The notes: generated from the sequence alone by a model not told the origin. Numbered from the stretch's first letter, positions 28,609-34,475 are shown. The stretch is 64,000 nt of DNA from Nannocystis sp. (GCF_016714285.1 NZ_JADJNN010000008.1:324669-388668), one strand, 5' to 3'. Made by a program: numbers and translations.

Positions 28609-30651
28609 GTGCGTGAATGTGCGGAGCTGGAGATCGGGCTGTCGCGGCGCGACGCGGGGTCGTACGCGGTCGAGCTGCGCTTCACGCAGCCGGGCAGCGA
28701 CGCCGATGTGCGGGTCGGCGAGGGCGAGGGGCTGGCCTGCGCGCTGGATCTGGCGGGCCTCAAGGAGCTGCTGGCGCAGCCGGAGGCGTACGGGCGGGCG
28801 CTCGGGGCGGGCCTGTTCGCGGCGCCGAAGGTGGCCGAGACGCTGGCCCGCGCCCAGGCGGCGGCCGCCAGTCAGGACCTGCCGCTGCGCGTGCGCCTGG
28901 CGATCGCGGTCGACGTGGCCGAGCTGCACGGGCTGCGCTGGGAGCTGCTGCGGACGCCGGACGGGACCCTGGTCAGCGCGGGCGAGCGGATCTTGTTCTC
29001 GCGTTACCTTGCGAGCGTCGACTGGCAGACGGTCAAGCTGCGGCCGCAGGCGTCGCTGCGGGCGCTGATCGTGATCGCTGCGCCGGCCGGGTTGGCGGCG
29101 TACGGGCTGGCGGAGCTCGACGTCGCGGCCGAGCTGGCGCGCGCGCAGGCGGTGCTGGCGGGGATCGAGACGGTGGCGCTGGCGGGGCCGGGTCAGGCGA
29201 CCGCGACGGCGATCATCGACGCGCTGCGCAGCGGCTTCGACGTGCTGTACGTGGTGGCGCACGGGTCGTGGCAGCGCGGTGAGGCGTTCGTGTGGCTCGA
29301 GGACGCGGCCGGCGCGGTGGCCCGGATCGCCGGGGCCACGCTGATCGCCCGGGTCGCCGAGCTGCAGCAGCGGCCGCGGCTGTGCGTGCTGGCCTCGTGC
29401 GAGAGCGCGGGCGCGGGCGCGGGGGAGGACCCCGCGGTGCTGGCCGCGCTCGGGCCGGGGCTGGCGCGCGCCGGGGTGGCGGCGGTGGTGGCGATGCAGG
29501 GCCCGCTGAGCGTGGCGACGGCGGCGGTGTTGCTGCCGCGGCTGTTCGCGGAGTTGTTGCAGGACGGGCAGGTCGATCGGGCGCTGGCGGTCGCTCGCGC
29601 GGCGGTCCGTGAGCGGAGCGACTGGTGGATGCCGGTGCTGTTCATGCGCCTGCGCTCGGGACGGATCTGGTACACGCCGGGCTTCGGCGGCGAGGGCGGG
29701 CAGTTCGAGAAGTGGCCGGCGCTGCTCCGCAGCATCGCCCAGGGGCGCTGTACGCCGGTGCTCGGGCCGGCCCTCGGCGACGCGCTGCACGGGTCGTCGC
29801 GCGAGCTGGCCCACCGCTGGGCCGACGAGTACGGCTACCCGATGGCGCCGGGCGGGCGCGAGGATCTGCCGCACGTGGCGCAATACCTGGCGGTCCACCA
29901 GGACGAGCGGTTTCCGATGGACAAGCTCGAGGGGTCGCTGCGCGACGCGGTGGTGTCACGATTCCCGCAGGTGCTCACGGGGGGCGCGGGCGAGGGCACG
30001 CTCGACGAGGTGCTGGCGCGGGTGGCCGACTGGCGGCTGGCGCAGGGGAGCTTCGATCCGTACCAGGTGCTCGCGCGGCTGCCGTGTCCGCTGTATGTGA
30101 CGACGGCGAGCGACGGGCTGCTGGCGCATCACCTGCGTCTGGCGGGTCGTTCACCGCAGGTCGCGCTGTGCCCGTGGAACCCCGACGTGGTGGCCGACGC
30201 GGCCGTCGCCGAGGCGGCGAGCGTGGAGCGGCCCGCGATATATCACCTGTTCGGGCATATCTCGGCCCCGAACTCGCTGGTGATCACGGAGAACGATATC
30301 TTCGACTTCTTGATCAGCGTGAGCGCGGATCGCGAGGTGATCCCGCCGCGGGTGCGGGCGGCGCTGGTCGACTCGTCGCTGCTGATCCTCGGGTTTCCGA
30401 TCGACGATTGGAAGTTTCGCGTGTTCTTTCGCAGCCTGATGAACCGGGCCGGCGGGGGCCGGCGCAAGCGCTACACGCACGTGGCGGCGCAGATCGATCC
30501 GGAGGAGGCGCAGACGATCGACCCGGCGCGCACGCGGCGTTACCTCGAGGAGTACTTCGAGGGCTCGGACATCACGATCTATTGGGGCAGCGCGGAGGAC
30601 TTCCTGCGCGAGCTCGCCGGGCGGCTGCCGGGGGGGAGGCCGGGCGCTTGA
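28609..30651 (+). CDS. CHAT (caspase-like) + SIR2-like two-domain effector protein
   Basis: CHAT His/Cys contexts LYVVAHGSWQRGEAFVWLED and RLCVLASCESAGAG. SIR2-like: CTPVLGPALGDALHG, PLYVTTASDGLL, VITENDIFDFL, SSLLILGFPIDDWKFRVFF. Confidence 0.8.
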   Translation: MRECAELEIGLSRRDAGSYAVELRFTQPGSDADVRVGEGEGLACALDLAGLKELLAQPEAYGRALGAGLFAAPKVAETLARAQAAAASQDLPLRVRLAIAVDVAELHGLRWELLRTPDGTLVSAGERILFSRYLASVDWQTVKLRPQASLRALIVIAAPAGLAAYGLAELDVAAELARAQAVLAGIETVALAGPGQATATAIIDALRSGFDVLYVVAHGSWQRGEAFVWLEDAAGAVARIAGATLIARVAELQQRPRLCVLASCESAGAGAGEDPAVLAALGPGLARAGVAAVVAMQGPLSVATAAVLLPRLFAELLQDGQVDRALAVARAAVRERSDWWMPVLFMRLRSGRIWYTPGFGGEGGQFEKWPALLRSIAQGRCTPVLGPALGDALHGSSRELAHRWADEYGYPMAPGGREDLPHVAQYLAVHQDERFPMDKLEGSLRDAVVSRFPQVLTGGAGEGTLDEVLARVADWRLAQGSFDPYQVLARLPCPLYVTTASDGLLAHHLRLAGRSPQVALCPWNPDVVADAAVAEAASVERPAIYHLFGHISAPNSLVITENDIFDFLISVSADREVIPPRVRAALVDSSLLILGFPIDDWKFRVFFRSLMNRAGGGRRKRYTHVAAQIDPEEAQTIDPARTRRYLEEYFEGSDITIYWGSAEDFLRELAGRLPGGRPGA

Positions 30652-33600: not shown

Positions 33601-34475
33601 GCGGCGCGGCGCAGACGCTGTGGAAGCTGCCGCAGCGGCCGCTGCGGGTCGCGCTGGCGGTCGATCCAGCGGGCCTCGCGGTGGCGGCGGGCGTGGCGTT
33701 CGGGGCGACGAGCGTGACGCTGATGGCAGAGCAAGCGGTGGGGACGGAGCCCTCGCCGCGCACGCGCACGATCGCGGCCGGGGTGCCGATCACGGCGCTG
33801 GCCCTCGATCACGCGGCGGAGCGCCTCGCGGTGGCGACCTGCAGCGAGCGGATCGGCCTGGCGACGTGCGCACGCGGCGAGGTCCGGGTGTACGCGGTCG
33901 CCAGCGGGGCCGAGGTCGCGGGTCCGCTGGCGGTCGATGGCGTGCACGGGCTGGTGTTCGCGGCCGACGGTCGACGCCTCGCCGGGCTCGTGCCCGGCGC
34001 GCCGCCGGTGGTGTGGGAGCTCGCCGACGGCGAGCGCCTCGCGTTGACGGTGCGCCGCTCGCTCGGCGAGTTCATCGCGGCCGACTTCTCCGCGGACGGC
34101 GACGTGCTGCTCGCCAGCGCCGAGGCCGACAACGCAGCGGTGGCGCTGACGCTGTGGGATCTGCGCTCCGGCGAGGAGCTGGCGCCGCCGCTGGTCGCCC
34201 ACAACCCCGCGGTCGGCAGCTTCGATCCGGGGGCGCAGCGGTCCGTGCTGCTGGCGCCGCACAGCGGGCTGGTGGTCAGCAGCAGCTTCGACGGGGTGCT
34301 GCTGTGGGATATCGCCGACGCGACGCTGACGAGCCGCGCGTGCACGCTGGCGGGGCGCGAGCTGACGAGCGCGGAGTGGACGAGGTTCCTCGGCCGCGGC
34401 GAGCCGCAGCAGGCGCAATGCGGCGCGCCGCTATCCGAACATCGACGCCGCGATGCTCCCGATCGGCGCCTATGA
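30650..34475 (+). CDS. STAND-class P-loop NTPase (same family as 19735-24240) + TM segment + WD40-like beta-propeller
   Basis: TTG start overlaps the upstream TGA (TTGA). PYVGPRALRSGEALFGRDRE. Walker A: LLYSPSGAGKSSLLQAGLVPRL. Walker B: VLLIDQFEELLT. TM helix TIRVLAAVVGLLVVAGLSVGIVLI. More than 10 repeats of the D-G/L-W type follow (LALAPDGALAVAG...TLWTVEGG...VTAWTVAGG...LTLWDLRSG). Confidence 0.8.

Follow-up and report, generated by a model that had tools for sequence, protein, structure and literature searches.

What kind of system results when the gene of a caspase-like protease runs into that of a membrane-anchored NTPase, and which of its domains acts, which one couples and which one senses? 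The question is raised by two open reading frames, ORF A and ORF B (together system 2), in a stretch of 64,000 nucleotides from Nannocystis sp. (GCF_016714285.1 NZ_JADJNN010000008.1:324669-388668; 73% G+C), the whole of which we call the window. A first reading made from the sequence alone had described ORF A as a CHAT-SIR2 effector, which makes of SIR2 a second effector beside the protease, and had set the pair beside a second NTPase system (system 1) as a case of effectors and sensors shuffled around one NTPase core. We hold with moderate confidence that the pair is a conserved STAND/NLR-type conflict module that is split across the inner membrane and probably directed against phages or other invaders. 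It would fall within the known STAND/NLR kind of conflict system and be unusual in two features: the sensor would be exported past the membrane from the NOD, and a former SIR2 effector would have turned into an adaptor.

The CHAT-SIR2 protein and its NTPase partner

Both frames are backed by an analysis of third-position G+C (GC3) and by public gene calls, which give the same two genes on the Nannocystis contig GCA_016717175.1 JADKFZ010000004.1 (Myxococcota, metagenome-assembled). Alignments place the N-termini of both proteins in register with their homologues. The TGA of ORF A (30649-30651) overlaps the TTG start of ORF B (30648-30650), as the sequence-only reading had stated and as the same gene calls have it, and a GGAGG can be read directly 8 nt upstream of this TTG. 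As one part of the reading as a whole, and with no more confidence than we give to it, we regard the two genes as a translationally coupled module.

ORF A consists of a small N-terminal beta domain, the CHAT domain, a conserved linker and the SIR2-like domain. Pfam recognises CHAT (PF12770) at amino acids (aa) 62-339 with E 7e-25 (88.5 bits against a cutoff of 24), and the His-Cys dyad that characterises the family is present as well: the HG motif is H218-G219, the SCES motif is S263-C264-E265-S266, and H218 and C264 are each kept in 202 of 202 family members. The 680-aa CHAT and SIR2-like protein with its HG/SCES dyad, as proposed earlier, is therefore borne out by both domains and motifs. 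An AlphaFold2 model of moderate quality (predicted local distance difference test, pLDDT, 76; predicted TM-score, pTM, 0.52) matches SAVED-CHAT 8tl0 in Foldseek (E 2e-7), its N-terminal half being SAVED-CHAT-like, and the PADLOC SAVED_CHAT model matches at the domain level only (E 1e-9). The linker at aa 338-370 (DWWMPVLFMRLRSGRIWYTPGF...EKWP) is nearly invariant across phyla, although the model gives aa 349-367 a pLDDT below 50; perhaps it serves as a docking motif or, with its Arg, as a site of self-cleavage.

The C-terminal half holds a SIR2_2 domain (Pfam, aa 495-649, E 1.3e-16) whose Rossmann fold is confirmed by a PDB profile match to ThsA (E 1e-8) and by Foldseek (ThsA 8btp, E 4e-11); the modelled fold resembles ThsA, KomC and DSR2. 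Its motifs differ from the canonical ones, with LGPALG for the GAG loop, TTASD for TTNYD and YHLFG for xxHG. A profile of 21 family members, aligned without gaps to SeThsA, BcThsA and KomC, places F548 at the catalytic His of xxHG (ThsA H152, DSR2 H171, KomC H146). Over the 202 sequences used for column statistics, 200 of which are aligned at this position, the residue is Phe in 179, Tyr in 14, Leu in 7 and His in none. At the position of the catalytic Asn (ThsA N112) ORF A has Ala, and the family has Asn in 95 of 202 members (47%), Ala in 40, Asp in 20 and Ser in 19. The Rossmann core is nevertheless kept (G386 of the Gly-rich loop in 200 of 202), and many residues in the SIR2 half are invariant, a sign of strong purifying selection. 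A second His, H546, lies two residues before the lost one in 84% of members. The same -2 His is also found in stand-alone SIR2 enzymes that keep the catalytic His (FHLHG, YHFHG), which argues against H546 as a replacement; we considered it as a shifted catalytic His and find this unlikely. The SIR2 domain of ORF A is thus probably not an effector but a coupling or adaptor piece. Its role as a second effector is not supported: the catalytic His is absent from every aligned member, the Asn is Ala here, and the SIR2 of system 1 is degenerate too.

ORF B starts with an nSTAND1 module (PF20703), found by Pfam at aa 13-382 with E 2.7e-37 (129.7 bits against a cutoff of 27.1), and the UniRef entry of the identical protein is named 'nSTAND1 domain-containing NTPase'. 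The motifs PYVGPR, FGRDRE, SGAGKSSLLQAGLVP and LIDQFEEL are all present. Walker A (SPSGAGKSS) and Walker B (LLIDQFEE) are intact and nearly invariant in 29 homologues, and a sequence search of the PDB yields no solved relative of the module.

Relatives of ORF A are numerous: 761 reach E<=1e-5 among the candidates scored. Their architecture was checked on the best 120 of the 761, all of which are full length, 49-100% identical and of the same CHAT + SIR2_2 build. A scan with one genome per species finds at least 514 loci with an ORF A-type gene. Among the matches listed most come from Chloroflexota, followed by Acidobacteriota, Actinomycetota, Proteobacteria (Serratia ureilytica and Cupriavidus among them), Verrucomicrobiota and others, with Myxococcota represented too. 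According to tblastn of plasmid records the module is essentially not plasmid-borne. It is within reach of experiment in culturable strains, namely Serratia ureilytica CCUG 50595, Cupriavidus pinatubonensis LMG 23994, Cellulomonas septica and Oscillochloris sp. ZM17-4.

Neighbourhoods were counted on 79 CHAT-SIR2 loci that were fetched, and the CHAT-SIR2 gene is directly upstream of nSTAND1 in about 65 of them. In nearly all loci with enough downstream DNA the nSTAND1 start lies -42 to +223 nt from the CHAT-SIR2 stop, typically overlapping it; over the 79 loci the downstream gene usually starts at -40 to +20 nt. The partners are recognised by phmmer with E between 1e-57 and 1e-126. About 52 of 60 complete partners have a single hydrophobic helix 60-80 residues past the NTPase, and WD40 repeats occur in 39 of 46 homologous regions after this transmembrane (TM) helix. 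In several genomes two or three SIR2(-CHAT) + nSTAND1 modules stand in tandem, and in some there are tandem stand-alone SIR2 genes before one nSTAND1 (both among L009, L011, L051, L052 and L135-L139).

The pairing is not limited to CHAT-linked proteins. Stand-alone SIR2 proteins of about 320 aa are found directly upstream of nSTAND1 in a Nonomuraea/Ensifer pair (L089/L090; tblastn, plasmid records), the partner being nSTAND1-TPR in Nonomuraea and nSTAND1-PQQ in Ensifer, and both SIR2 proteins keep the canonical FLGAGAS, TTNYDD and H[LF]HG. A metagenome scan seeded with these two proteins gives at least 432 loci. Among the matches listed, 57 loci extend 1.2 kb or more downstream and 51 of these have nSTAND1 as the very next gene, a TM helix is present in about half of the complete nSTAND1 partners, and the HG His is kept in 87 of 87 stand-alone SIR2 ORFs; TTNYD, having been written into the pattern of the scan, is not independent evidence. 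These systems probably work by NAD+ depletion, like those of the Avs5/ThsA type.

System 1 is arranged in the same way. Its NTPase is an nSTAND1 (Pfam, E 3.7e-43) with a TM helix at about aa 403-425 of the translation from 24255, and its GTG start overlaps the TGA of the effector (GTGA, 24237-24240, minus strand). The region after the helix is rich in Cys, most of them near the C-terminus, and apparently helical; Pfam finds no match in it, and so no family for the helical repeats named by the sequence-only reading. The SIR2 of this system is degenerate (FLGDGIW, STTHD and YKLLG, with His replaced by Leu). The effector has only three full-length relatives. On the contigs covered for two of them, each is followed by a gene with a 4-nt overlap, which is nSTAND1-WD40 on L084/L085 and is cut by the contig end on L086.

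Since a canonical stand-alone SIR2 also stands directly upstream of nSTAND1, the constant unit is the pair of SIR2-like domain and nSTAND1, and the earlier idea of the NTPase alone as the constant core had to be replaced. We propose to group the systems by a protein ending in SIR2_2 encoded immediately upstream of nSTAND1, usually with an overlap of the two genes, which covers systems 1 and 2 alike. On the effector side the variants are CHAT, TIR-caspase or no N-terminal fusion; on the sensor side they are WD40, PQQ, LysM/CBM9, TPR or a Cys-rich helical region. The catalytic His is lost where a protease or TIR module is fused before SIR2, to Phe in one lineage and to Leu in the other.

The sequence-only reading had also placed two related NTPase systems close together, and they are indeed 4 kb apart with homologous NTPase cores (30% identity over 302 aa, E 3e-13); the signature said to be the same in both is similar in its motifs but not identical. 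Between the effectors the alignment is limited to 58 aa of SIR2. In a rough neighbour-joining tree of the NTPase modules, drawn without support values, the CHAT-linked NTPases form one clade (system 2, L087, L088 and the effector-less L082, the sister of the window's ORF B), the partners of stand-alone SIR2 form two groups and system 1 is a separate long branch. The separate branches make the two systems remote paralogues that are neighbours by chance, and with an identity of 30% confined to the NTPase and so short an effector alignment we rejected a recent local duplication. Modular shuffling therefore stands as an exchange of effectors and sensors around a constant core, but it did not happen in the window, system 2 being part of a large old clade.

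L082 itself is a paralogue of ORF B on the same Nannocystis contig, about 120 kb upstream of the window. It is an nSTAND1-TM-PQQ_2-like propeller protein of 1200 aa with 51% identity to ORF B in the NTPase, and no SIR2 or CHAT gene stands beside it; it might work with ORF A in trans or serve as a decoy.

Predicted topology of ORF B and its sensor

ORF B has an NTPase that is not preceded by a signal peptide, and a hydrophobic helix of 21 residues at aa 464-484 with seven Arg on its N-terminal side and three Lys/Arg on its C-terminal side. A TM helix is found at the same position in 117 of 120 database homologues. Counted over the 15 residues before and after the helix, Lys and Arg sum to 226 against 95, and the N-terminal side is the richer one in 38 of 41 proteins. 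With no signal peptide, a need of the NTPase for cytoplasmic NTP and a single TM helix, the C-terminal 790 residues are predicted to lie outside the cytoplasm. The TM helix thereby puts sensor and NTPase in separate compartments, a consequence that the earlier reading, although it named the helix, had not drawn.

Pfam matches of this C-terminal part to WD40 or other beta-propeller families are weak (E 2e-6 to 4e-5), which can be attributed to the unusually degenerate repeats of the window copy. AlphaFold2, run on aa 492-1275 with a 29-sequence alignment, gives a confident model (mean pLDDT 87.4, pTM 0.87) with a long helix, about 53 strands at aa ~570-1221 and two terminal helices. In Foldseek the model resembles tandem 7+7 propellers: Nostoc 2ymu (E 2.6e-27), Aip1 1nr0 and Apaf-1 3shf. 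The sequence of NTPase signature, TM helix and propeller proposed for ORF B is thus recovered by Pfam, by the helix and by the structural model, including the prediction of the WD40 region as a beta-propeller. C1232, C1258 and the Arg of the C-terminal motif are invariant in 29 aligned homologues, and a strict regular expression finds the motif in 38 of 120. The two Cys would be compatible with a disulfide, a weak sign of export; similar C-terminal tails occur on cytosolic WD40 proteins.

In homologues the WD40 region is exchanged for modules of the exported type, namely LysM + CBM9, PQQ_2 and PD40/TolB-like. The LysM + CBM9 variant (P0235) is still preceded by CHAT-SIR2 with a 4-nt overlap. 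Identity to ORF B amounts to 73% in the NTPase against 51% in the propeller for P0124, on whose contig the ORF A partner is 80% identical, and to 61% against 27% for P0135. Propellers that diverge faster than the NTPase are the pattern expected of a sensor facing a ligand. In L007 the partner is divided between two genes, one for the NTPase alone and one for WD40.

A sensor outside the cytoplasm cannot reach the NOD, which makes clustering a likelier way of activation than the release of an intramolecular clamp. To our knowledge the characterised STAND/NLR receptors (Avs, bNACHT, Apaf-1, plant and animal NLRs, SAMD9) all sense in the cytosol, with the sensor clamping the NOD. If the predicted topology is right, an exported sensor on a single helix would follow a different activation logic, would extend NLR surveillance to the envelope and would be the first STAND/NLR system shown to sense outside the cytoplasm.

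Proposed mechanism, rival readings and known systems

In the mechanism that we propose ORF B would be receptor and switch in one, with the propellers outside, one TM crossing and nSTAND1 on the cytoplasmic face, while ORF A would be the executioner, a CHAT protease with intact dyad on a SIR2-like domain devoid of the catalytic His. A ligand would be bound by the propellers, either at the cell surface or in the periplasm, and by analogy with STAND proteins the NTPase modules would then cluster and oligomerise in an NTP-dependent way. ORF A would be docked on this NTPase platform by its SIR2-like domain, through SIR2/NOD and SIR2/SIR2 contacts as in SAMD9. Docking through SIR2 is suggested by the fact that this domain is the only feature common to all effectors of the supergroup and is encoded next to the NTPase start. 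CHAT domains brought together in this way might be activated by proximity, as on the apoptosome, and cleave cellular targets; in about a third of the loci, possibly including the window, a C25-like protease may be what CHAT cleaves, as one step of a proteolytic cascade. In the end the cell would stop growing or die. We infer the adaptor role of SIR2, the activation by proximity, the ligand, the substrates and the role in defence alike. More tentatively, and short of what we would call probable, the module might be pictured as a bacterial 'outside-in apoptosome', a transmembrane NLR-like receptor that links phage adsorption, a breach of the envelope or a foreign cell to a caspase-like protease via a SIR2 adaptor.

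Several points weigh against a membrane-split conflict module. The extracytoplasmic position of the propellers is a predicted topology, and if it holds, the usual autoinhibition of STAND proteins by a sensor folding back on the NOD cannot apply and the signal would have to pass through one TM helix. Six of the 79 CHAT-SIR2 loci have no adjacent nSTAND1 (L012 has one on the opposite strand, about 4 kb off), and in L042 nSTAND1 comes first, followed by a C25-TIR protein and then CHAT-SIR2. The C25-like gene of the window is 3.5 kb from ORF B and its membership is uncertain. H546 in 84% of members, an Asn in about half and the strong conservation of the domain would also suit a non-canonical enzymatic or ligand-binding role of SIR2. 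Finally, the role in defence is argued by analogy and from context: scans of all components with PADLOC and NCBIfam give domain-level matches only for ORF A and none for ORF B, so there is no model of ORF B or of the pair and no known system name to apply.

The best of the rival readings, which we still consider unlikely, grants the topology but not the immunity. The module would then be an outside-in signalling, programmed death or self/non-self device of multicellular or filamentous bacteria, in which the protease processes a regulator. CHAT proteases can act on regulators, Craspase being an example, and the C25-like protein of the window ends in a weak domain of the helix-turn-helix (HTH) type. 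With an extracytoplasmic sensor the cue might consist of peptidoglycan fragments, kin surface proteins or contact-dependent toxins; the LysM/CBM9 variants bind peptidoglycan or glycans, and a peptidoglycan-binding lipoprotein of the OmpA type is linked to the module in the Nannocystis clade. Many carriers are Chloroflexota, Myxococcota and Actinomycetota, the groups of the systems of Kaur et al. (PMC7159879). A device of this kind fits poorly, however, with the patchy phyletic spread, the tandem copies in some genomes (L009, L051, L052), the fast divergence of the sensor against a conserved effector and the defence-island-like setting of the window; moreover, the SIR2 NADase of the sister systems is intact, and such an enzyme is a typical effector of abortive infection.

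Rather improbable is the double effector of the sequence-only reading, according to which ORF A would combine proteolysis with NAD+ depletion. The SIR2_2 fold is clear and under purifying selection, H546 is widely kept and about half of the members retain the Asn; moreover, the sister stand-alone systems have an active SIR2 as their effector, and so does Avs5 (PMC11897194). Yet Phe, Tyr or Leu takes the place of the catalytic His throughout the aligned family, and in ORF A the Asn is Ala and the GAG loop is GPA. The TIR-caspase-SIR2 lineage has lost the His independently, and the -2 His, being found in enzymes with the catalytic His as well, offers no substitute. Very improbable, finally, is a SIR2-like domain that senses NAD+, an NAD-derived signal or another nucleotide and gates CHAT allosterically, with ORF B acting upstream or in parallel: the Rossmann core and Gly-rich loop are kept, the SIR2 half is very highly conserved and nucleotide-gated CHAT proteases such as SAVED-CHAT (8tl0) exist, but the system 2 loci share no conserved enzyme that could make a signal (cyclase, TIR or similar), the SIR2 of SAMD9 works through protein contacts, and in three effector architectures SIR2 strictly precedes nSTAND1, stop and start overlapping, which argues for a direct protein partnership.

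Returning to the membrane-split conflict module, its parts have relatives in several known systems. An incomplete search of the literature yielded no description of CHAT-SIR2 with nSTAND1-TM-propeller, of a stand-alone SIR2 + nSTAND1 pair or of the degenerate SIR2 state. The nSTAND1 clade was named by Kaur, Iyer, Burroughs and Aravind (2021, eLife, PMC8195603) in systems with Death-like and EAD adaptors. These counter-invader systems share with the module the PF20703 NTPase, a STAND switch with variable effectors and sensors, and a similar bias to bacteria of multicellular habit. Their effectors are brought in via bDLD3, EAD10 or EAD8 adaptors or an EACC1 context, whereas the module has no EAD, a separate upstream effector gene ending in a SIR2-like domain, and a TM helix and exported sensor after the NTPase. 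The two-gene caspase system with EACC1 (Kaur et al. 2020, System 4) does not fit either, as there is no EACC1-like gene and both order and partners differ; the NCBIfam model 'caspase_w_EACC1' matches only the effector of system 1, below its cutoff (62.9 against 140 bits).

The order of modules is shared with human SAMD9. It and SAMD9L run from an effector through a non-catalytic, prokaryote-type SIR2-like domain and a STAND NOD to a repeat sensor (PMC13600222; PMC5445408), and SAMD9 cannot be activated without SIR2/SIR2 dimerisation, its SIR2 also lying against the NOD (PMC13600222). All of this is carried on one cytosolic chain in SAMD9, where the effector is a tRNase and the sensor TPR-OB, whereas the module is divided into two genes at the SIR2/NOD boundary, with a CHAT effector, an nSTAND1 NOD and the sensor past a TM helix; the likeness is one of module order. 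From active stand-alone SIR2 to CHAT with degenerate SIR2 to TIR-caspase with degenerate SIR2, all with nSTAND1, we would see a series in which an effector is demoted to an adaptor, a parallel to the SIR2-NOD unit of human SAMD9.

Avs5 (AVAST type 5), ThsA, DSR1/2, SIR2-HerA and KomC likewise couple SIR2_2 to an oligomerising NTPase or a sensor. ORF A differs from Avs5 and the SIR2 effectors in having Phe for the catalytic His and Ala for the Asn, and SIR2 and NTPase are separate, the latter being of another clade. The PADLOC Avs models do not match ORF B, nor is there the single polypeptide with a cytosolic sensor that defines Avs. Apaf-1 shares a STAND NOD followed by tandem WD40 propellers as sensor (3shf, TMq 0.41) and, if the proposed mechanism holds, a caspase-family protease that is recruited to the oligomer and activated by proximity, but it is cytosolic, has a NOD of the NB-ARC/AP-ATPase type, recruits through CARD-CARD contacts and uses its propellers to clamp the NOD. 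The module lacks a CARD and has a SIR2-like domain as its putative adaptor, and its NOD would be cut off from the propellers by the membrane; of the features that define Apaf-1-like proteins only the tandem propeller is shared, and with an nSTAND1 NOD and a TM helix ORF B does not qualify as Apaf-1-like.

Craspase TPR-CHAT/Csx29 and SAVED-CHAT resemble ORF A in using CHAT with a His-Cys dyad as a switchable protease, and the cascade from SAVED-CHAT to PCaspase is a possible parallel, with the C25-like protein in the place of PCaspase. In contrast to these CRISPR-linked proteins the activator would be a STAND protein rather than a crRNA complex or cyclic oligoadenylate, and SAVED and TPR are absent. 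Mycobacterial kinases of the PknD type, with extracellular propellers, also join a cytoplasmic switch to an outside sensor through a TM segment, but they are not STAND proteins. Kibby et al. (bioRxiv 10.1101/2022.07.19.500537) remark that bacterial NACHT proteins with TM segments may sense signals of the membrane or periplasm; the TM segments of these bNACHT proteins are multiple, and a large exported repeat domain is not among the features described for them.

Coordinates, neighbouring genes and repeats

Features of systems 1 and 2 and of associated genes, with positions counted from the first nucleotide of the window
Feature	Position	Strand	Details
ORF A, CHAT + SIR2-like	28609-30651	+	GTG start, 680 aa
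CHAT protease domain of ORF A	28792-29625	+	dyad H218 (AHGS), C264 (SCES)
CHAT-SIR2 linker of ORF A	29620-29718	+	aa 338-370
SIR2-like domain of ORF A	29716-30624	+	aa ~370-672; LGPALG, TTASD, YHLFG
Gene junction ORF A/ORF B	30630-30651	+	Shine-Dalgarno-like GGGGGGGAGG, 8-nt spacer, TTGA
ORF B, nSTAND1-TM-propeller	30648-34475	+	TTG start, 1275 aa
nSTAND1 NTPase module of ORF B	30684-31847	+	aa 13-400; Walker A GAGKSS, Walker B LLIDQFEE
Single TM helix of ORF B	32037-32099	+	aa 464-484, VLAAVVGLLVVAGLSVGIVLI
Tandem beta-propeller of ORF B	32355-34310	+	aa ~570-1221; ~13-14 degenerate WD40 blades; predicted extracytoplasmic
C-terminal motif of ORF B	34341-34421	+	C1232-x4-R-x-LT-x2-EW...C1258
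System 1 NTPase	19735-24240	-	nSTAND1, TM helix, ~1060-aa Cys-rich C-terminal region
System 1 effector	24237-26318	-	TIR_2 + Peptidase_C14 + degenerate SIR2-like; outside system 2
OmpA-family lipoprotein gene	27940-28572	+	ends 36 nt before ORF A; start from public gene call
C25-like clan-CD protease	~38050-39942	+	start uncertain (ORF 37855-39942)

The sequence-only reading had confined system 2 to ORFs A and B; these limits hold for the pair but leave out two likely additional components, a lipoprotein gene upstream and a protease gene downstream. The lipoprotein has the lipobox LVVAC, TSP3-like Ca-binding repeats and an OmpA C-terminal domain (Pfam OmpA, E 9e-15). The same gene is directly upstream of CHAT-SIR2 in the closest relatives (L087, L088), where the other flanks differ; it thus precedes ORF A in three different genomic contexts, all within the Nannocystis clade, and was not found in the other 79 loci. 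It is a probable clade-specific accessory, and its membership in the system of the window is uncertain.

The protease belongs to a recurrent third gene. Clustering of flanking ORFs and jackhmmer reveal a Peptidase_C25-like clan-CD protease in 29 of the 79 loci, either immediately downstream of nSTAND1 or immediately upstream of CHAT-SIR2, with SHG and ACYGAG conserved, and in some proteins (L051, P0145) the C25-like domain replaces the TM-sensor part in a fusion with nSTAND1. The homologue in the window matches L003:14204-16210 (BLASTP, E 4e-29) and the Pfam C25 model. It has its His in SHGEG, its Cys in ACYGAG and a Pro/Ala/Thr-rich repeat linker before the C-terminal domain mentioned above; a 60-bp coding tandem repeat of 2.6 copies (39497-39687) corresponds to this linker.

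Between ORF B and the protease lie two further genes on the plus strand. One encodes an Eco57I-type type II methyltransferase (34632-36566; PADLOC MTase_II, E 1.6e-216), the other a 411-aa ORF (36765-38000) with metallophosphoesterase-like motifs (SDLHLG, NGDTFD, GGEHD) and no Pfam match. Both were rejected as parts of the system, being absent from all CHAT-SIR2 loci beyond the contig of the window, and for the same reason they look like an inserted cassette; among the loci compared, the methyltransferase matches only two stand-alone-SIR2 loci (L160, L163). Next to the protease, ORF 39950-40837 (295 aa) has no family match and contains a 69-bp repeat at 40633-40796 (2.4 copies, acidic 'PLESLADEDxPA'). 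As a candidate for the recurrent fourth gene of nine loci it was discarded, since it shows no similarity.

Adjoining system 1, an LSDAT_prok (SLOG) + SLATT/DUF4231 protein with two TM segments is encoded at 18442-19719 (+; E 2e-56) and is predicted to be a nucleotide-sensing membrane effector. The neighbourhood of a second nSTAND1 system, the LSDAT-SLATT protein and the methyltransferase is compatible with a defence island, though no proof of one. Farther out are a subtilase-like protein (13151-15790), a TPR protein (15849-18215, minus strand), a Ser/Thr kinase with FG-GAP repeats (42205-46602) and a 1777-aa LamG/beta-gamma-crystallin protein (46203-51536).

The divergent intergenic region between a TrmO-like gene (-) and the OmpA and CHAT-SIR2 genes (+) contains a 15-bp tandem repeat, GACTCGCTTTGTCCG, at 27743-27841 (6.6 copies, 85% matches). 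It is richer in AT than its surroundings and was flagged as two terminator-like hairpins in a promoter/terminator scan that was uninformative in this 73% G+C DNA; the operon might be regulated through it, as a binding array. An 18-bp tandem repeat (27516-27616; 5.6 copies, 97% matches) falls in the N-terminal part of the TrmO_N-like ORF at 27006-27710 (-). Offsets between the window and its public copy (L001) are 18608, 18607, 18590 and 18605. As they are not constant, the two must differ by small indels, one of them of 18 nt, which is consistent with a difference in repeat copy number.

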